From the NCBI GenBank assembly GCA_963663405.2, contig CAXXSM010000132.1, positions 1 through 64,000 on the forward strand: a DNA stretch of 64,000 nt, written 5' to 3'. Made by a program: the position numbers and the translations under genes. Below the pieces are notes generated by a model that saw nothing but the letters and a program-made list of their open reading frames with translations, did not search any database and was not told the DNA's origin. Source of the DNA: a bacterium (GTDB taxonomy: Bacteria; Hinthialibacterota; Hinthialibacteria; Hinthialibacterales; Hinthialibacteraceae). Shown here piece by piece: positions 18,870 through 29,296 of the stretch (positions are counted from its first letter, which is position 1; every line of letters starts with the position of its first letter).

Positions 18870-21197
18870 TCAGTGGTTAGGTTTACGCCAATTTAAATGC
18901 CTGTGGAGGAAATCAAATGTTCCCTTGCCATGAATCATATGGGGGCCGTCGAAGAATTCAATCTCCGCGCGGTCTCCGATTCCCAGCTGGACGTAGTGTC
19001 TTTTTACTTTGGCGAATTCATAAGCGACCCATTCATCCGGCGCGACGCCGTCGTGATGACCGCGTTCGACCATGAAAGGCCGGGGGCAGATCAGCCAGCT
19101 CAATTCCGCATAATTAAACGTTTCTCCTATATTGAATTCCATCATGTCGTATTCACCTGTTATCAGGTAACTGTAGCGATGACGGGTGGAGACGTTTTTC
19201 CAGATCCATTCGTTGAAATCCGCCGAACAGATTGAAAGGCAATAGCCATCCAGAAGCGCAGGCGCACGCATGGCGGTTTTGCCGCCGTAGCTCAATCCAT
19301 AAAACGCGATGCGTTCCGGATCAACAGGGGGGAGTGAAGAGAGCCATTGCAGGATCCGTTCGTGCTGCCGTGTGATGAACGCGAAGAGCGATAATCCAAG
19401 AGGGTGAGCTTTGCGCTGGAGAACGCGGAAACGATCCTGACCGATGTATGGATTCTGGGGCGCAAAAGTGATGAAACCGCGTTCAGCCAATTGGCACGCG
19501 AATTGACCATAGGCGGATTTATTGATACTTGGATCGGCGACATCCTGGGGACGGCCCTCCAAACCATGCTGACAGACAACAACGGGACGGCGTTCGCCGG
19601 GTTGGATATCTTTTGGCAGTAGGAGAATTCCATACGCAAAGACATCGGGATAGACATCGAGTACGATCTCATAGCCCCGGTATTTGGGTTCGTCATACAC
19701 CAACCGGGAACGGGGATTCATAGGGATTTTGGATTCCGGCAGGCGGCCGATGATCTCATCCCAGAAGTAATCGCGGTACCATTGAGACGATCGCTTCCAT
19801 GCTTCCAGACTCGACGCGTCCGCCTGGTTCCAGAATTCGGCGCGGGTGAATTCGCTTTCGCGCATGAGAGATTGAGTGTGTTCGAGAATTTGGGTGAATT
19901 GGCGTTTCATCCGAGATTCGGGATCGAATTCTTGAAATCGTTTGGGAACTGATTTCGAATCGATGAATTGATCGTCTGAATCTAAAGCGGTCAGGAATGT
20001 GGAGAGAATTTCTTCGCAGCCGGGTGGACCATCAAGGTTTTTAATCAAGGGAATTGTTATGGATGGTTTTAAACCTTCGATCAATTCATTCGCGCGGCGC
20101 GCTTCCCGTTCGACGGTTGCGAAGGGAGGAGTCGTAATGACACCGGGCGCGGCTCCACTTCGATTGGGTAATTGGGGTGGGCCTTCGATCTCTGGGTGTT
20201 TACAGGCTTCAATGATGAGGGAACGGGGGGCGATCATCGCGGCGGTTTCGGCGGCGCCGAATTCTTTTAGCAGAGACCAGACATTCCGATAAATCGGTTC
20301 GCGCCAAAGTTCTTCGCGGGGCTGGAAATAACCGAGTACCGCCGCCGCGTCGATGCGGGTATCGACAGCGGTGGAGTAGAACGCGAGCAGGCCCCCTTCA
20401 CCATAGCCTATAACACCGGTGGGCCGGACGTTTTCGTCTTGGGTAAACCAATCGATCGCGGCGAGAATTTTCTGTATTTCATATCCGATCATCGTACGCC
20501 CCATTTCGTAGGCGGCGCGGTAGAGATATTCGCGGTGAGGTTGGTTTGTCATGCGGTATTGTTCAATTCCGGAATAATCGCAATGACGGTCGATCAAAGT
20601 TGGAATGAGGACGCGGCAGCCGTTTTCCGCCAGACGCCGGGCGAACTGTCCATCAAGGGGGATGCCTTCCGTCAGTCCGCAGAGCATTTCCGGTGTTTGA
20701 TCGCAGTCCGGAAGGGCGATGAGATCCGCGATGGGAGTTTGATCCGGTTGCAGCAACAACCCTTCAGCGTCGACGTTTTTCAATACACTCCAACGAACAT
20801 TGTAAATCTTGTAATTAGCGCCAGCTCCGATCAAGCCTGCCGCCTGCTTATCATTGTTGGAAGAAAATTCCGATGAAATGGGAGAAACAATCGAAAATGT
20901 GACCGGTTCGCGATCGTCGGCGAGACCAAGGATTTTTTGAAGCCGTTCCCGGTTGGGCGCAATGGATTGGGTGTAATTCTCATGCGAAGAAAGATCCCGG
21001 TTCCAGAATTGGCTTCTCCGCTGCGCGGCGGCGCCGGTCTCGCGCATGAGATAGCAGTCGATACCCGCAACCATTTGGGCGGCGAGATCTCCTTCCATCG
21101 TAAGGGGCTTGGTGTTGGGAAGTTGTGAAACATTTTCAGCGAATGTAAAGATTGGGAAAGATAGTATTAAGGAGATGGTTAGGGGAAGGCGGATCAT
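18870..21197 (-). CDS. Secreted tandem alpha/beta-hydrolase (dienelactone hydrolase-like)
   Basis: Signal peptide; two hydrolase modules, GYGEGG (no Ser) and GLSYGG; CQHGLEG; C-terminal DGPH. Confidence 0.8.
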   Translation of the reverse strand: MIRLPLTISLILSFPIFTFAENVSQLPNTKPLTMEGDLAAQMVAGIDCYLMRETGAAAQRRSQFWNRDLSSHENYTQSIAPNRERLQKILGLADDREPVTFSIVSPISSEFSSNNDKQAAGLIGAGANYKIYNVRWSVLKNVDAEGLLLQPDQTPIADLIALPDCDQTPEMLCGLTEGIPLDGQFARRLAENGCRVLIPTLIDRHCDYSGIEQYRMTNQPHREYLYRAAYEMGRTMIGYEIQKILAAIDWFTQDENVRPTGVIGYGEGGLLAFYSTAVDTRIDAAAVLGYFQPREELWREPIYRNVWSLLKEFGAAETAAMIAPRSLIIEACKHPEIEGPPQLPNRSGAAPGVITTPPFATVEREARRANELIEGLKPSITIPLIKNLDGPPGCEEILSTFLTALDSDDQFIDSKSVPKRFQEFDPESRMKRQFTQILEHTQSLMRESEFTRAEFWNQADASSLEAWKRSSQWYRDYFWDEIIGRLPESKIPMNPRSRLVYDEPKYRGYEIVLDVYPDVFAYGILLLPKDIQPGERRPVVVCQHGLEGRPQDVADPSINKSAYGQFACQLAERGFITFAPQNPYIGQDRFRVLQRKAHPLGLSLFAFITRQHERILQWLSSLPPVDPERIAFYGLSYGGKTAMRAPALLDGYCLSICSADFNEWIWKNVSTRHRYSYLITGEYDMMEFNIGETFNYAELSWLICPRPFMVERGHHDGVAPDEWVAYEFAKVKRHYVQLGIGDRAEIEFFDGPHMIHGKGTFDFLHRHLNWRKPNH

Positions 21198-21459
21198 GAT
21201 CGGCTCCTATGGTTTTTAAATGTATGAAAAATGAGTACTTTTCAGAAGTTGAATTGTACTATTGTAATCTTTCTTCGTCCGAATCTTGATAGCCAGAATG
21301 GGATGATTCAATATTCGAAGAGGATAAGCGCTTCTAACTCATAGAATTATTTTTCGAAAAAACGGTTTACATACTGTATGTTTTTATGTTAGGATTGAAA
21401 GTGGATTAAAAAAACGGATTCATTATCCGTTATATTCAACAAATATGGGGGAAAAAAAC

Positions 21460-22320
21460 ATGAGGCGTATTTTGTTGACTGTTACACTTGTTATCATCTT
21501 AACCGCTATTCTTCCTACAGTTCAGGCGCAAGACCGCGACGAATCAGAACGCCGGCTTATTGAAGTTCCGTACTCGGCTTCGATTCCAACGATTGATGGT
21601 GTGCTGTCGCCGGGGGAATGGGAGGACGCCGCAGTGGATTATGTCTCTCTCGACGATCGTGGTTTTTATGGCGATGGGGCCGACAGCTGGTCAGGGCCGG
21701 AAGACTCCAGTTTTCATTTCTGGGTGAAATACGACGGGGATTTCATCTATTTTGGCGTTGACGTGAAGGATGATGCATACATCTCAGAAAATTATGGTGA
21801 AAAAAAACGCGGGAGCAATTATCCCGTTTGGGAAAACGACGCGGTGGAATACTTTTTCGATGGAGACCTATCTCGCTCCGAAACCCGGAATGATCCCTTG
21901 ACGGGTGGACAATTCATCTTAGGACTCGGAACCGAACCCGCCAATACCGTGTACAAGGATATCACCGATGACTTGATCGAGGAGGGTGATTATGAATGGG
22001 TCACGATTTGGGACGAAAACACCAATGATTGGTCCCAAGAAGCCAAGTTCGCTCTTTATATGATCGGCGAGCCCGGTGAGGGAGATTCCATCGGCTTCAA
22101 CATCAATGTGGACGATCCTGACACCTACGATCCCCAAACACGGGATCCAGACAATACGGATTACATTGATTTACGCGATACCCAGGTCTATTGGGAAGCG
22201 TTTCCAACTCTCTGGGGTGGGAATGTGAACGCCCAGGGCACAGAAAATATTGAGAATATGTGGGGAACTATGACCTTTCTTCCTGAAGGGGTGAATGTTG
22301 AACATTGGGATTTGTTTTGA
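21460..22320 (+). CDS. Secreted CBM9/DOMON-like sugar-binding domain protein
   Basis: Signal peptide; PTIDGVLSPGEW, YFGVDVKDD, WENDAVEYFFD, IGFNINVDDPD; ends VNVEHWDLF. Confidence 0.75.
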   Translation: MRRILLTVTLVIILTAILPTVQAQDRDESERRLIEVPYSASIPTIDGVLSPGEWEDAAVDYVSLDDRGFYGDGADSWSGPEDSSFHFWVKYDGDFIYFGVDVKDDAYISENYGEKKRGSNYPVWENDAVEYFFDGDLSRSETRNDPLTGGQFILGLGTEPANTVYKDITDDLIEEGDYEWVTIWDENTNDWSQEAKFALYMIGEPGEGDSIGFNINVDDPDTYDPQTRDPDNTDYIDLRDTQVYWEAFPTLWGGNVNAQGTENIENMWGTMTFLPEGVNVEHWDLF

Positions 22321-22333
22321 CTAATGGGGTCTT

Positions 22334-22393
22334 CACAAGGGCAGAAAAAAATCAATGCTCCAGCGAAAACGCCTGTACTTGCCCTTGTCGTCC
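22334..22393. repeat. REP-like palindrome, long form
   Basis: CACAAGGGCAG...GCCTGTACTTGCCCTTG; same layout as 29386-29446. Confidence 0.7.
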
Positions 22394-22627
22394 AGTATTT
22401 TATTTTTCAGATCAGACTTCAGGATCTTTCCAAGATGCGCGGGACTCCCTGCTGAGGTGTTTGTTGGCTTTGAGGGATAGAGGATCTTGCCGTTTTCGCC
22501 ATCCAGGTGAAACAACGTCCGGTTTTGTGCGAGAACATTCCGAGCAGGCTCATGGCGGTGACATTTAGACAATTGGAGAGTATGCGCTATAGAGTAGATT
22601 TGAGACGATTTCTAACGGCGCTCTTGA

Positions 22628-25003
22628 TTATTGGCAGTCATTCACAATGCCCAGATCTAGTAAATTGAGATAGAGCCAATACGGGATTTCCAGCAGATTC
22701 ACCTGATCGCCGCAGTCGATCACGATGACGATCGGCAGATCATTATTTGATTCATAATCAGGCATCGTTCCGTTGTTCGCGTCAACATATTGGAAAATCT
22801 CATCCACAAGATTGGGATCCCATGTGACGCCTCCTCCTTTGATGTGACCGGCGCCCCAAGGAAAACCATTGAAGAGCAATTTCCAGATCACCGCTTGAAT
22901 ATCACTGTTGCTTGCTTGAATAAAGATTGGATTGCCGTTGTTTCGATAGCAATATAATAAGAAGTTAACGAGGGGAAGATTCGCCGGATTCCCTACAAGA
23001 GCGCAATCATCCGAAGCGGTTAGGGACGAATAACACTTCACGTCGTGATACCAGAAGTCCAGATAAATTTTAGTATCAAGATCCGCGCACCAACCCGGAT
23101 AGATTTCATCCCCCCCTGCGGTTAGCGTATCCGAAAAACGCGCGTCAAAATAACCAAGGATTCCCGGCCAATTCGGCGCGGCCCCGCCTCCCGGAAGAAC
23201 ATAGTCTTCATCATCGTTTACAAGATAACAATGAAGCGCCAACCGTCCCGAGCCGAATAAAGTATCTTTTCCTGGATCCCCAAGATCGATCGCCCATTTT
23301 TCTAACAGAGAAGCGCATTCGTCTATCGTCAGTTGGGGATATCGGGAGAGTAAGAGCGCCGCCGCTCCCGCGATGTGAGGCGTCGCCGCCGATGTGCCGC
23401 TGAAACTCTTCGAACCTGATATCGAAACCGATGTTGGACCACAGATATCCGGTTTTACATTAGCGCCTGGTAAAGGCGCTTCCCCTCCTGGACCATTGAT
23501 TGGCCCTTGGGAACTATAATATTCTAGAATCCCATCGTACCAAAAATACTTGGCAATGGCGCCAACACATAGCGCATAAGGAGAGTCAGATGGAATGATG
23601 ATACTTCCCGAAGAAATAGAATAATTGAAGTTATGATTTTCACTGTAAAGTTCAATATAACAATCAGGGGGGATGCTGGTTTCATTCGATTCAATCCGGA
23701 TTACATACCATCCAGATCCAGTTGTATTTGTATATTCGAGATATTCGGTTGGCGTTTGACCCACCGTTCCGTCTTGCGTATTGTCGGATTCAGCGACTTC
23801 CATGTAACTTCCAGCGGTCCATTTCAATAAACGCAGTTTCAGATCAAGGTCACAACTCGTCCAATCGTTCCAACTTAGATAGAGTTGAATTTTTTTATCC
23901 TTTACGACATAGACAAGATTATCTACTGAATTTCCGCCATCAGCTGGATGCGGATTTTCGAAGTCGTGCATGTAGAGTGATTCCATACTGTATGGATTGG
24001 CGCTCGTTTGTAAAAGTGGATTAAAATAGCCTTCGTAATGCATCTTGGCTTGGTTCCCGGCGGCGTTCATCCACAAAATTCCATTGTTATACGCGTTTTC
24101 AACAATATCACAAACAGGACCCGTTCCATCATACGGACCGAGGTTCGCCCAACCAACCGAAAAGGAGATGACATTAATTCCTTCCCCAATAAGCCAATCG
24201 ACAGCGTTTCCCAATTCAACGATGGTTCTGAATCTCACCAGATATAACTCGGCTTCGGGCGCCATGTCATACACGATCTCCGCGCACTTTCTACCATGAT
24301 CGCTGCCACCAGGAAAAGCGCCGTTTCCATTTTCATCGTTTACAAAAGAACGGGTTATGACAGACTGGGGCAAATCTGTGCCTAATATATCGTAATAACC
24401 GATAAAACCAACATCGACGACTGCGATTTTCACACCCGCCCCACGGAATCCTGCGTTATGAAAGCAGAAAGCGCCAGTCAACCCCACTCCTTCACTGATC
24501 GTGGGAATGTCACATGAGATGGGATCATTTGGTATTCGAATATAAAGCACTCCTGAGATTTGACTGACCGCTTCAAGAGATGAAATAGGAACGGTCGCTT
24601 GACATAAATTTTTATACCAGCCCTGCGTTTCGACTCCCTCTTTTTCAAGTAACAGCGTTAAACCATCCGGATTTTGATCTTCATCCGTGACAATGATGAC
24701 TTGTATACCAAGTGATTCCTCTTCACTGACTTGCGTTTTTCCATATAAACCTTGTTTATTCAAATCGATAAGACGGCTTAAATAGCCATCCATTTTTGGA
24801 TTTTTAGTAGGATGGATGGCAGGACCGGCTTGTAGAGAATTTTTATAAGATATTCCCTCTTCTTTTGATTGAGATGGCGCGGCATCCGCAAATCCATAAA
24901 TCAAAAACAGAAATAACAATGAGTAAAGTAATATAAATTTATTTAACGTTAAATTCATGATAACTGAATTATGCTTTTTTTTATTGAATATTCCGTTCGT
25001 CAT
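22628..25003 (-). CDS. S8 subtilisin-like serine protease with C-terminal thioester-domain-like module
   Basis: Triad IAVVDVGF, SDHGRKC, FSGTSAATPH; oxyanion NAAGN; GAAGGAG RBS before ATG 25003; C-terminal GWCAD and IQAVIW. Confidence 0.85.
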   Translation of the reverse strand: MTNGIFNKKKHNSVIMNLTLNKFILLYSLLFLFLIYGFADAAPSQSKEEGISYKNSLQAGPAIHPTKNPKMDGYLSRLIDLNKQGLYGKTQVSEEESLGIQVIIVTDEDQNPDGLTLLLEKEGVETQGWYKNLCQATVPISSLEAVSQISGVLYIRIPNDPISCDIPTISEGVGLTGAFCFHNAGFRGAGVKIAVVDVGFIGYYDILGTDLPQSVITRSFVNDENGNGAFPGGSDHGRKCAEIVYDMAPEAELYLVRFRTIVELGNAVDWLIGEGINVISFSVGWANLGPYDGTGPVCDIVENAYNNGILWMNAAGNQAKMHYEGYFNPLLQTSANPYSMESLYMHDFENPHPADGGNSVDNLVYVVKDKKIQLYLSWNDWTSCDLDLKLRLLKWTAGSYMEVAESDNTQDGTVGQTPTEYLEYTNTTGSGWYVIRIESNETSIPPDCYIELYSENHNFNYSISSGSIIIPSDSPYALCVGAIAKYFWYDGILEYYSSQGPINGPGGEAPLPGANVKPDICGPTSVSISGSKSFSGTSAATPHIAGAAALLLSRYPQLTIDECASLLEKWAIDLGDPGKDTLFGSGRLALHCYLVNDDEDYVLPGGGAAPNWPGILGYFDARFSDTLTAGGDEIYPGWCADLDTKIYLDFWYHDVKCYSSLTASDDCALVGNPANLPLVNFLLYCYRNNGNPIFIQASNSDIQAVIWKLLFNGFPWGAGHIKGGGVTWDPNLVDEIFQYVDANNGTMPDYESNNDLPIVIVIDCGDQVNLLEIPYWLYLNLLDLGIVNDCQ

Positions 25004-25310
25004 GGTGTCTCCTTCAGGTCTCAAGATGTGATGGAATAAGTACGGGGAACCGTACATATTTATGATTATCAATTCGGTATATCTATTATAAATATAATTA
25101 AATCAAATAAATAAATATCAAATGAAATAAATATGACCATTAAATTATATATTCATTCTCATTTCATTCAATGGATTTAAAAAAAATTGATAAAAAAGTA
25201 ATATTACATTACAATTATAGACAGTGTAATATAAACAAATTGAGCATAATAAGATTCTTTATATGTGGAACAACTGAACGAGAATATGGGAATAAGAAAG
25301 GGGAGGGGGA

Positions 25311-26429
25311 TTAAATCTGATTTGCGTCGCGTTCTTTCAAGCATTCAACGATCTTGCGCACTTCCTGCAGCCGATTTTTCGGACAGATCAGGAGTCCATC
25401 ATCAGTAGTGATGACCACGATGTTTTCCATGCCGATCACTCCAACCGCCATTTTTTCCGCGCCCGCTTCGTTGTATACAGTCACATCGTGACAGTCGACC
25501 AGGATCGGATCTCCCAGCGCGACATTGCCGTTTTCATCCTTAGGCCGGACACGGGCGAGGGAATCCCAGGAGCCGACGTCATCCCAGATGAAACGGCCAC
25601 GAACCATGAAAACGCTGCTGGCGTGTTCCATCAGAGCGTAGTCGATCGACACATTCTCCATCTGTTCGAAGATCGCCTCGATTTCTGGATCGGGATTTGA
25701 AGATGTTTTCAGAATATCCCGCATATCCCGCACATGTTGCGCCAATTGCGGCATAACCCGCTCCAACTCGGCCATGAATACGGAAACCCGCCAGAAAAAC
25801 ATACCGCTGTTCCAATAGAACCGGCCCGTGGAAAGAAATCGCTCCGCCAATTCTCTTTCCGGTTTTTCGCGGAACTGCGCGACGGGATAGGCTTTGACGC
25901 CATCTTCATCCGGCAGCGGTTCAGTCCCTTCGGCGATTTCGATATAGCCATATCCGGTTTCTGGACGTGTCGGCGTTATTCCAATTACTCCCAAGGAATC
26001 GTGTTTTCCCGCGTATTGCAGGGCGGCGGCGATTGTTTGGCGGAACTGATCGTCATGGCCGATCCGGTGATCGGCCGTGAGGACCGCCATCAGAATATCA
26101 TCACTGTTTTCTTCATAACGCGCCAAAGCATGAGCGGCAGCGAAAGCGAGGCAGCCCGAAGTATTCCGCCGGAATGGTTCTCCAAGCACATTCTCCTTCG
26201 GCAGCTGGGGGATAGATTTAATTATTGTATCACGCAGGATTCTATTGGCCGCGATGAAGGAATGCTCGTATGGAATCAGGGGATTCACCCGCTCGAGCGC
26301 TTCTTCGAGCATGGATTTGGTTTCGTGTGTCAGACGCAGCAACTGCTTGGGCCGCCGGATCCGGCTCAACGGCCAATACCGCTCGCCCGATCCTCCAGCC
26401 ATGACAACCAAGATGGTTGGGATGTTCAT
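25311..26429 (-). CDS. manC: Mannose-1-phosphate guanylyltransferase
   Basis: MAGGSGERYWPLSR, PKQLL, EPFRRNT, PETGYGYI, FREKP, WNSGMF, SIDYALME, WDDVGSW. Confidence 0.93.
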   Translation of the reverse strand: MNIPTILVVMAGGSGERYWPLSRIRRPKQLLRLTHETKSMLEEALERVNPLIPYEHSFIAANRILRDTIIKSIPQLPKENVLGEPFRRNTSGCLAFAAAHALARYEENSDDILMAVLTADHRIGHDDQFRQTIAAALQYAGKHDSLGVIGITPTRPETGYGYIEIAEGTEPLPDEDGVKAYPVAQFREKPERELAERFLSTGRFYWNSGMFFWRVSVFMAELERVMPQLAQHVRDMRDILKTSSNPDPEIEAIFEQMENVSIDYALMEHASSVFMVRGRFIWDDVGSWDSLARVRPKDENGNVALGDPILVDCHDVTVYNEAGAEKMAVGVIGMENIVVITTDDGLLICPKNRLQEVRKIVECLKERDANQI

Positions 26430-26565
26430 GCAAGTACCTCTTTAAGAATAAGTAATGAATACGGATTGAAGCCACTTCCAGGGTAAATCTCGGATTTCCC
26501 GTTCCATCTTCGGAGGTCAATATGAAGTGATTATGATTCCGCGTATAAACCGTTAATCATACCCG

Positions 26566-26610
26566 AAAAAGCCGATCCGCTCCACGTCTCGAAGCGTAGA
26601 GTGGATCGGT
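26566..26610 (-). terminator. Intrinsic terminator of clpB
   Basis: Minus strand ACCGATCCACTC...GAGCGGATCGGC then T5, 40 bp after the clpB stop. Confidence 0.6.
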
Positions 26611-26650
26611 TTGAATCAAAATCATACTTCCTGCGGCCTATTGATTATCT

Positions 26651-29296
26651 CTATGCGGGAATTGGTTCGGCGATTTCCGGTTCAGGGGTGGGATTTTCAT
26701 GAGTAATGAGAATCTCGCCATGTTTTACATCCGTGAAGATTGTCGCGCCGTCAAGAATATCCCCTGCGATCAACGACCGGCCGAGTTTCGTTTCTAATTC
26801 CCGCTGAATCATACGCCGGAGAGGACGCGCGCCGTAGATGGGATCGTATCCGGTTTCGGCGATATGCTTCCGCGCTTCAGGTGTAACTTCAAGGCGAATC
26901 CGGCGATCCTTGAGGCGAATCCGCAATTCATCCAGTAGAAGATCCACGATCCGCTCGATTTCTTCCAGGCGAAGCGCCTTAAAGAGCACGATATCATCAA
27001 CGCGGTTCAAGAATTCCGGCCGGCAATGCATTCGTAATTCATCCATTACACGCGCCCGCGCGCTTTCCTGGATTTCTCCCGATCCGCTTACCCCTTCGAG
27101 AAGATGTTGCGAACCGATGTTTGAAGTCATGATGATGACGGTGTTTTTGAAATTCACCACACGGCCCTGCGCGTCGGTCAAGCGCCCGTCATCAAGAATT
27201 TGCAGCAACACGTTAAAGACATCGTGATGCGCTTTTTCGAATTCATCAAACAGGATGACACAGTATGGCTTTCGCCGGACCGCTTCGGTCAATTGCCCGC
27301 CTTCTTCATATCCGACATAGCCTGGAGGCGCGCCGAGCAGCCGGGCGACGGTATGTTTTTCCATATATTCTGACATATCGATGCGGATCATGTTCTCTTC
27401 GGAATCGAACAACGATCGCGCAAGAGTTTTTGCGAGTTCGGTTTTCCCCACGCCCGTCGGACCAAGGAAGATGAACGAACCGATGGGGCGCGTAGGATCT
27501 TTGATCCCAGACCGGGCGCGGATAACGGCGTCTGCGACGGATTGAACCGCCTCATCCTGGCCAATAACACGCGCGCTAAGGGCTTCATCCAGATGAAGAA
27601 GTTTTTCACGTTCCCCCTCGACCAAACGGGTAATTGGGATACCCGTCCAGCGGGAGATGATCTCGGCGATTTCATCCTGGGTCACCTCTTCGCGCAGAAA
27701 TTTTGATTCCCCCTGTTTACGCGCCAATGCCTCTTCTTCTTCGTTCAATTTCTTCTGGAGGCCGGGCAGCCGTCCATGACGCAGTTCGGCGGCTTGGCTA
27801 AGGTTGTATTCCCGTTCGGCGCGTTCAATTTCCTGGCGGATCGATTCGATTTCTTCCCGAATCCGGCGGATTTTTTGGATGGTCTCTTTTTCCGCCTCCC
27901 ATTGAGCCTTCATGCTGTCGGCTTTGTTCCGGAGATCGGCCAGCTCTTTGTGTAGATTATTCAGGCGTTCTTTGCTGGCTTTATCCCGTTCTTTGCTCAA
28001 AGCCTGTTCTTCAATTTCCAATTGCATGATACGGCGTGTATACGCGTCCAGCTCCGAAGGCATGGAATCGATCTCGGTGCGGATCATGGCGCAGGCTTCA
28101 TCAATCAGATCGATGGCCTTATCCGGCAGAAACCGATCTGAAATGTACCGGTTCGAGAGCGTGGATGCGGCGACGATAGCGTTGTCTTGAATTTTTACAC
28201 CGTGATGGACTTCGAATCGATCACGCAGCCCACGCAGGATCGAGATCGTGTCCTCCACGGTGGACGGCTCAACAAGAACCGGCTGGAACCGCCGCTCTAA
28301 AGCGGCGTCTTTTTCGATATGTTGACGGTATTCATCCAGCGTCGTGGCGCCGATACAGTGTAATTCACCCCGCGCCAGCATCGGTTTGAGCATATTACCC
28401 GCGTCGATGGAGCCTTCCGCTTTACCGGCGCCGGCGATGGTGTGGAGTTCATCGATAAACAGCAGGATTTGGCCGTCACTGTTTTTGATCTCATCCAATA
28501 CTGCTTTTAGACGTTCTTCGAATTCACCGCGGTATTTAGCCCCGGCGACGAGCGCGCCCATATCAAGAGCGAAGACATGTTTGTTTTGCAAACCATCCGG
28601 CACGTCACCCCGGACGATGCGGTGCGCGAGTCCTTCCACAATGGCGGTTTTCCCGACTCCAGGTTCACCGATCAGGACAGGATTGTTTTTCGTTTTCCGT
28701 GAAAGAATCCGGATGACGCGGCGGATTTCTGAATCCCGCCCGATAACCGGATCGAGTTTGCCCAGGCGGGATTCAGCCACGAGATCGCGCCCGAACCGCT
28801 CCAGCGCCGCGTAGGACGATTCCGGCGTCGCGCTTGTGACCCGCTGATTGCCCCGCACGGAGGTGAGAGTTTTGAGAAAGCGGTCTCGATCCACACCCGC
28901 GCTGGTCAAGATTTTCGACGCGGAGGAGGATGTATCACGCAGCAGGGCTAGGACTAAATGTTCGACACTAACGTATTCATCTTTTAAGCGTTTGGCTTCG
29001 TCTTCCGCCTGAACCAGTGATTTATTCAGCCGGTTTGTCACATAAATCGAACCAGACGCCGTGCCCGGCCCACTCACTCGCGGGCGGCGCTCCAATTCCT
29101 GGATCAATTGTTCCTTCACAGATTGAGATGGCGCGTCCATTTTGGATAACAAACGGGGAATTAATCCTTCCGGCTGTTCAAGAAGCGCGAGCAGCAGATG
29201 TTCCCCGTCGATTTCCTGATGACCAAAACGAATCGCGAGAGATTGCGCTTCCGAGAGCGCTTCTTGTGATTTCTGTGTAAATTTATTAACGTTCAT
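26651..29296 (-). CDS. clpB: ATP-dependent disaggregase ClpB
   Basis: Two AAA+ modules ([16 protein letters not shown]), KYRGEFEER, coiled-coil middle domain, GAPPGYVGY; 881 aa. Confidence 0.98.

Follow-up and report, generated by a model that had tools for sequence, protein, structure and literature searches.

A secreted subtilase with a C-terminal thioester-domain-like module that recurs on about twenty other exported proteins of a diderm bacterium

The 64,000-nucleotide stretch analysed here (positions 1 to 64,000 of contig CAXXSM010000132.1, assembly GCA_963663405.2, from a bacterium of the Hinthialibacteraceae; hereafter the window) encodes on its minus strand an exported protease of the subtilase family S8 that ends in a thioester domain (TED) of the class I type with a conserved Cys/Gln pair. 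The genome is that of a diderm, and the same C-terminal module is carried by about twenty other secreted proteins encoded in it. As the gene is one of about 22 with this module, the likely role of the domain shifts from a protease-specific device to a shared module. We propose that this module tethers secreted proteins covalently to one common acceptor, a reading that we regard as slightly favoured overall, because the module is highly similar across different head domains and occupies the position where relatives of the S8 protease carry anchoring tails. We infer thioester formation, amine capture, tethering of the protease and the nature of the acceptor as follows. After export and folding, Cys639 and Gln767 would form an internal thioester with loss of ammonia. 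An amine of the acceptor could then attack the thioester and become amide-linked to Gln767, by which the protease would be tethered covalently, and through the shared module a whole set of secreted enzymes and binders would be attached to one common acceptor. It might be the surface or matrix of the cell itself or else some common external material.

The module comprises the last 200 residues of the protein, which we refer to as S8-TED (Table 1; residue numbers are those of the module unless the protein is named). A preliminary description of this DNA had recognized a probable TED from the segments YPGWCAD, NLPLVNFLL, DIQAVIW and GDQVNLLE. All four are present, and the Cys and Gln codons of the first and the last segment lie where they had been placed; the coordinates of DIQAVIW, however, were one codon short, as 22883-22900 covers IQAVIW only and the Asp is encoded at 22901-22903. 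The TED motifs defined in extracts of Walden et al. 2015 (PMC4450167) are [YFL]C-Phi-zeta, Phi-Q-zeta-Phi-Phi and TQxxPhiW. Counterparts of all three (aromatic-Cys, helix Q..W and late Gln) occur in the module, as had been proposed. The module recurs at the C terminus of nine other proteins with 48-51% identity, and in an alignment of ten sequences (A1) W47-C48-A49-D50, C76, I111-Q112-A113, W116, D175-Q176-V177-N178-L179 and C199 are among the invariant positions. A larger alignment of 28 sequences (A2) leaves only C48, D50, V88, Q112 and W116 invariant, and in the column of Q176 a Gln is found in all rows that extend to the last strands. Within the same genome, 23 open reading frames (ORFs) at 22 loci keep the W-C pair with Cys48, Gln112, Trp116 and Gln176 wherever the respective column is present. 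Judged from these alignments, the motifs of the module are far beyond chance.

A profile search of 1.84 billion representatives with the module retrieved 207 proteins at E <= 0.001, including 35 at E <= 1e-10 and 14 at E <= 1e-30. In local hmmsearch segments with a domain E < 1e-5, Y-x-G-W-C-[VIA]-D and [DE]-[IV]-Q-x-A-I-W are retained with few exceptions in these distant relatives. Of the 207 proteins, the best 150 were listed and 134 were scanned with Pfam, and the TED family PF08341 is the only one that recurs on their module region. It matched 10 of 40 relatives at E <= 0.01 (5 above the cut-off) and 6 of a further 94 at E <= 0.001 (2 above the cut-off), which makes 16 of 134, with 7 above the cut-off. 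The link between the module and PF08341 is a transitive one, running through distant relatives. A weak, separate hint comes from an ESM Atlas feature search, in which the top cluster scored 0.93 with PF08341 in 11% of its members. One distant relative, P0022 (612 residues), has an NCBIfam 'choice-of-anchor L' head (236.9 bits) and, at its C terminus, a TED-like domain, located where choice-of-anchor L proteins usually have a sorting tail.

An AlphaFold model computed from A2 reached a pLDDT of 86.0 and a pTM of 0.86. It comprises strands at residues 2-5, 28-32, 43-48, 59-61, 65-68, 166-172 and 177-183, and main helices at 82-97, 108-120 and 139-151. When the model was compared with known structures by Foldseek, rows 1-11 were all TEDs, with probabilities of 0.80-1.00 and query TM-scores of 0.43-0.55; in row 12 the probability was 0.03. 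A VIA-align search against 48,161 representative chains, independent of Foldseek, found eight chains at Z >= 5, all of them TEDs (Cpa 9.7, CpTIE 9.6, SfbI 9.4, BaTIE 8.7, FNE 8.5, PnTIE 8.2, EfmTIE86 7.5 and SaTIE 7.0), and the ninth chain had a Z of 4.0. A second-look VIA-align search agreed. The model based on A1 was shallower, with a pLDDT of 66.9, yet TEDs were already top-ranked. Although the Z values are middling, their clean separation and the exclusive TED content of the top matches make the assignment convincing: the module is predicted to adopt a TED fold, composed of a beta-barrel and three core helices. TEDs were the only strong matches in Foldseek and in both VIA-align searches, in keeping with the fold that had been postulated.

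The class I members CpTIE-TED (5A0G), Cpa/Spy0125 (2XI9, 4C0Z), SfbI-TED (5A0L), PnTIE-TED (5A0N) and FNE (5DCQ) resemble the module in fold, with Z values of 8.2-9.7 over 150-164 residues, and share its three motifs, their order and their secondary-structure context, albeit with only 8-13% identity in the structural alignments; both groups occur in secreted proteins. Class II TEDs, as described in excerpts of PMC6194298, have a beta-sandwich of about 75 residues inserted in the TED fold and form a slipknot. The upper lobe of BaTIE (6FWV), EfmTIE86 (6FWY) and SaTIE (6FX6) matches the module with Z values of 7.0-8.7, and these chains align over 222-256 of their residues including the insert. 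The module has neither beta-sandwich insert nor slipknot, since its 200 residues leave no room for them.

For three class I TEDs the bonded residues are given in the extracts of PMC4450167 as Cys138-Gln267 (CpTIE), Cys109-Gln261 (SfbI) and Cys94-Gln247 (PnTIE), and there the helix Gln of TQxxPhiW is shown not to be the bonding one. In the structural alignments, model residues 1 to 184/185 are paired with CpTIE 102 to 275/276, SfbI 78-270 and PnTIE 56-255. Gln267, Gln261 and Gln247 are situated 8-9 residues before the aligned end, as is Gln176 in the module. The spacing between Cys and Gln is 128 residues in the module (C48-Q176) and 129 in CpTIE. In the model, Cys48 and Gln176 are in register with the bonded Cys and Gln of CpTIE, SfbI and PnTIE, which upholds the late Gln as the candidate bond partner named in the preliminary description. 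The secondary-structure context is also the one that the extracts of PMC4450167 describe, with Cys and Gln in strands and Q..W in the middle core helix.

Two further cysteines, Cys76 and Cys199, occur together in 14 of the 16 close copies of the module in this genome, and all six diverged copies lack both. In the remaining close copies, the one on contig C36 has Cys76 but a gap at column 199, and the one on contig C39 has the two cysteines on separate frame-split pieces. Cys48 is kept in the diverged copies. P0015, a closely related LRR protein of 640 residues from another assembly that bears the same C-terminal module, is a natural Cys-less variant, which lacks Cys48 and keeps Cys76 and Cys199. 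Because of this joint presence and absence, Cys76 and Cys199 are likely to pair with each other and not with Cys48. The pattern suggests a disulfide between C76 and C199, which would pin down the C-terminal tail and leave C48 without a partner.

The N-terminal portion of S8-TED has Peptidase_S8 as the sole Pfam family found in the whole protein. Alignment to subtilisins reveals an intact catalytic set, with the Asp, His, Asn and Ser in VVDVG, HG, AAGN and GTSAATPH segments, respectively; we take these residues to correspond to positions 32, 64, 155 and 221 of BPN'. The preliminary assignment to the subtilases thus stands. Of 7,998 candidates scored in a search with the S8 core, 526 proteins reached E <= 0.001, and the best 120 listed have 33-54% identity. 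They span 86-100% of residues 60-590 of the protein, including the insertion in the catalytic domain (Table 1), and end in varied C-terminal tails, for example dockerin, PPC, Ig-like, GEVED or a tail of the type IX secretion system (T9SS; PF18962). S8-TED shares with these tailed subtilases the S8 core and its insertion (identity 54% to P0155, 33-42% to others), and in both a modular tail comes after the conserved GSGRL at which the catalytic domain ends. The tail of S8-TED, however, would attach covalently, as opposed to the non-covalent tails of the other subtilases. Profiles of the module match none of 119 listed S8 relatives, even at E <= 10, and no second S8-TED fusion was seen among these 119 and the 134 TED-like relatives examined, which agrees with the earlier remark that no characterized fusion of this kind was known. 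In addition, no paper among the full-text literature matches listed describes a subtilase-TED fusion or a diderm TED, although this absence is no proof.

The closest listed S8 relative, P0155, has a dockerin tail and is a paralogue encoded on contig C6 of this genome. It lies directly downstream of a 262-residue ORF that is almost only TED (C6, 31653-34502), and the TED of this ORF is the closest relative of the one in the window (65-66% identity). An origin of S8-TED by simple fusion at the C6 locus was considered and dropped, as the order there is TED then S8, the reverse of that in the fused gene.

Throughout the assembly (8.44 Mb in 170 contigs, 82% complete) the module occurs at 22 loci, with 14 intact close copies, 2 close copies that are frame-split and 6 diverged copies. 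In each of these 14 intact copies, 0-4 residues separate the module from the end of the ORF. The heads of the copies contain LRR (six), PKD (two), and GEVED, a PD40 propeller or a beta-helix (one each), and several are without match; further heads are the S8 protease and a 2,904-residue protein with FGE-sulfatase (sulfatase-maturase), fn3, caspase-like and PKD domains. Nearly all TED ORFs inspected have signal-peptide-like N termini. Despite their unrelated heads, the close copies (about 16 proteins) share the TED at 50-66% identity. Among 40 other related genomes, four have one weak module match each (E about 1e-14), and the expansion of the module is therefore specific to this lineage. A pattern scan of genome contigs for relatives gave 21 pattern matches, of which tblastn confirmed none. 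Frame changes inside or just before the module split the TED genes on contigs C87 (12859-16609) and C39 (1119-2008), and an in-frame TAA occurs in two diverged copies on contig C130. Within 6 kb of five TED loci (C130, C149, C36, C4 and C87), and not near the gene in the window, a family of large exported proteins (ORFs of 174-2,194 residues) recurs.

The genome contains two Omp85/BamA matches, LpxC and nine secretin matches. The host is therefore a diderm with lipopolysaccharide (LPS) genes, as the preliminary description had assumed. No sortase match was obtained in the genome, and at 82% completeness its absence is not proven. In the passages of the literature at hand, TEDs are said to occur 'exclusively in Gram-positive bacteria' (PMC4450167) and are placed in 'Firmicutes and Actinobacteria' (PMC13685950, October 2026), and the TEDs described are N-terminal, at the distal end of sortase-anchored proteins (PMC4450167, PMC6194298, PMC13685950). 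Unlike the class I TED proteins, S8-TED has no LPXTG and no isopeptide or ester stalk, and its module is fused to an enzyme in a host with outer membrane and LPS genes. The module further differs from class I TEDs in the extra invariant pair Cys76/Cys199.

Tethering to a common acceptor can be framed more narrowly as a 'covalent dockerin', namely an enzyme-free anchor that bonds some 16-22 secreted proteases, binders and enzymes to one amine-bearing acceptor on the cell's own surface or matrix. We advance this version tentatively and consider it rather doubtful. As a pH-dependent reversibility has been reported for SfbI-TED, such a bond could also be undone again. In a different scenario, the domain would act as a classical harpoon that bonds a specific foreign protein of a host, prey or particle, comparable to the reaction of SfbI with fibrinogen, and carries the protease there without anchoring it to its own surface. 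This is the only function demonstrated for TEDs (PMC4450167, PMC13685950), the fold and motifs of the module are the same as those of TEDs, and the exported CBM9-like and esterase-type proteins encoded next to S8-TED put extracellular substrates in play. However, the conservation of the TED on about 16 unrelated heads fits a common acceptor better than a set of target-specific warheads. Moreover, the module is C-terminal, where the S8 relatives carry anchoring or targeting tails, and the stalk of isopeptide or ester domains and the cell-wall anchor are absent. We consider the harpoon unlikely.

The sortase/LPXTG and PEP-CTERM/exosortase systems of surface anchoring likewise equip many secreted proteins of a genome with one type of C-terminal element. 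Those elements are short signals served by a dedicated processing enzyme, whereas the module is a 200-residue autonomous domain with putative chemistry of its own, and no PEP-CTERM-like tail can follow it because the protein ends with the module. By analogy with the C-terminal domain of the T9SS, the module could instead be recognized by a secretion or sorting machine and be removed or irrelevant after export. Its location at the extreme C terminus of many exported proteins with unrelated heads is a pattern typical of sorting domains, and T9SS-type tails do occur among the S8 relatives. Yet at 200 residues the module greatly exceeds known sorting tails in size, it has the fold of a TED, and its conserved residues are exactly the TED reactive set. 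No recurrent gene for a neighbouring machinery was seen, and among the 41 genomes searched the expansion is confined to one genus. A mere sorting signal is very improbable in our view, but sorting and tethering are compatible and not mutually exclusive.

Several observations weigh against covalent tethering by the shared module. No direct match of the module to the Pfam TED family, NCBIfam or PDB sequences was obtained, even with profiles: a Pfam search of the window module up to E 10 found nothing, NCBIfam had no match on the module region and none related to TEDs on 18 distant relatives, and the A1 and A2 profiles reached only chance level against PDB sequences (best E 0.012, a reovirus turret protein), as did an ApeP-like Pfam match of one other A1 member (E 0.15). 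PF08341 had no match over the whole genome either; control genomes likewise gave none, and this search is hence uninformative. The Foldseek E-values are modest (best 1.1e-3), with TM-scores of about 0.5 and root mean square deviations of 3.6-4.1 A. Near the TED loci there is no recurrent neighbour gene as a possible acceptor. A conserved neighbour as acceptor or processing enzyme was accordingly dropped after clustering of the 256 flanking ORFs of 24 TED ORFs, in which only LRR and other secreted-repeat families recurred near 4-5 contigs and no recurrent flanking family lay near the S8-TED gene. The model also demands that a folded protein of 80 kDa passes the outer membrane. Furthermore, the module sits at the extreme C terminus and the class I TEDs at the N-terminal tip, and with this reversed position the logic may differ. 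A Trp, not covered by the published [YFL], precedes the Cys, Ile takes the place of the Thr in TQxxPhiW, and the late Gln, whose flanking pattern fits only loosely, follows an Asp instead of a hydrophobic residue. Finally, P0015 has an Arg at the candidate thioester Cys and is otherwise conserved; the fold can therefore persist without the bond.

The last two points would also suit a TED fold without chemistry, a non-covalent binding or stabilising domain in which Cys639 is free or engaged in a disulfide, and so does the statement in the extracts of PMC4450167 that thioesters are not structural determinants of TEDs. This explanation is at odds with the retention of Cys48 and Gln176 in the 23 ORFs of the genome wherever the column is present, which include six diverged copies with little else conserved. 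Likewise, Cys48 belongs to the five columns that alone are invariant in A2, and the joint variation of Cys76 and Cys199 argues against a pairing of either with Cys48. We judge loss of the chemistry to be decidedly unlikely.

With its outer-membrane host, its C-terminal location, and an active-looking protease plus about twenty other heads, the module falls outside the described picture of TEDs; the enzyme fusion and the argument from the anchor position are new here. If the bond forms, TED chemistry would be much more widespread than described and would follow a different logic, tethering enzymes instead of tipping adhesins, and the module would offer a compact natural means for covalent enzyme immobilisation. 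Should the covalent-dockerin version hold true, it would represent a new mode of protein surface display in outer-membrane bacteria. The protease fusion is the most easily tested member, as activity and tethering can be read out together.

The coordinates of S8-TED and its elements are compiled in Table 1. The coding sequence is part of an uninterrupted ORF (22628-25072, minus strand), the frame being open as far as a TTG at 25072. The N-terminal sequence predicts export of the protease by Sec.

Table 1. Features of the S8-TED gene and its product in the window.
Feature	Position	Strand	Basis and remarks
S8-TED coding sequence	22628..25003	minus	791 residues from ATG at 25003; stop codon 22628-22630; gene call P0002
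N-terminal signal peptide	24881..25003	minus	basic stretch, hydrophobic run FILLYSLLFLFLIYGF, then ADA before likely cleavage site; read from sequence
Likely pro-region	24503..24880	minus	between signal peptide and catalytic domain, without family match; S8 alignment starts after it
S8 subtilase catalytic domain	23273..24502	minus	Pfam PF00082, 71.7 bits (cut-off 21.8); residue alignment to subtilisin DY and BPN'
Catalytic Asp	24413-24415	minus	alignment to subtilisin DY and BPN'
Catalytic His	24296-24298	minus	alignment to subtilisin DY and BPN'
Oxyanion Asn	24053-24055	minus	alignment to subtilisin DY and BPN'
Catalytic Ser	23390-23392	minus	alignment to subtilisin DY and BPN'
Insertion of about 180 residues within S8 domain	23507..24043	minus	between Asn and Ser segments; two aligned stretches with gap; common to wider S8 subfamily
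Thioester-domain-like module, class I type, 200 residues	22631..23230	minus	motifs, alignments, predicted fold, distant relatives
Candidate thioester Cys (Cys639 of protein; module residue 48) in W-C-A-D	23087..23089	minus	end of predicted strand 43-48; invariant in 28/28 A2 rows
Cys76 of module	23003..23005	minus	likely disulfide partner of Cys199, from joint presence/absence
Gln and Trp of IQAVIW helix motif, counterpart of TQxxPhiW	22883..22897	minus	helix 108-120; Gln and Trp invariant in A2
Candidate thioester Gln (Gln767 of protein; module residue 176) in D-Q-V-N-L	22703..22705	minus	start of last strand 177-183
Cys199 of module (penultimate residue)	22634..22636	minus	likely disulfide partner of Cys76
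Promoter-like hexamers TTGAAT, 16 nt, TATAAT (10/12)	25144..25171	minus	upstream of S8-TED gene; weak, regional count not above shuffles

Around the S8-TED gene, promoter-like and terminator-like sites do not exceed their frequency in shuffled sequences, and an Rfam scan of window positions 21000-27000 at E <= 1 gave no match and thus no riboswitch before the gene. The gene is AT-richer than its neighbours, as the preliminary description had remarked, but only slightly so, with a GC fraction of 0.442 compared with 0.491 for the window, 0.469 for the genome and 0.468 for the TED module alone. A foreign origin of the gene was dropped, since its GC content lies less than 3 points from the mean of the genome, which is too little to support one. 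Upstream and on the same strand (25311-29296, minus) a mannose-1-phosphate guanylyltransferase-type nucleotidyltransferase and ClpB were read by eye; they are presumably housekeeping genes without functional link to the protease. On the other side, an exported CBM9-like protein (21445-22320, plus; PF06452, E 3.2e-7) is encoded convergently with S8-TED, and a 775-residue exported protein with two alpha/beta-hydrolase lobes (DLH; esterase/AXE1-like) at 18870-21197 (minus). Both of these neighbours suggest a role in extracellular polymer degradation.

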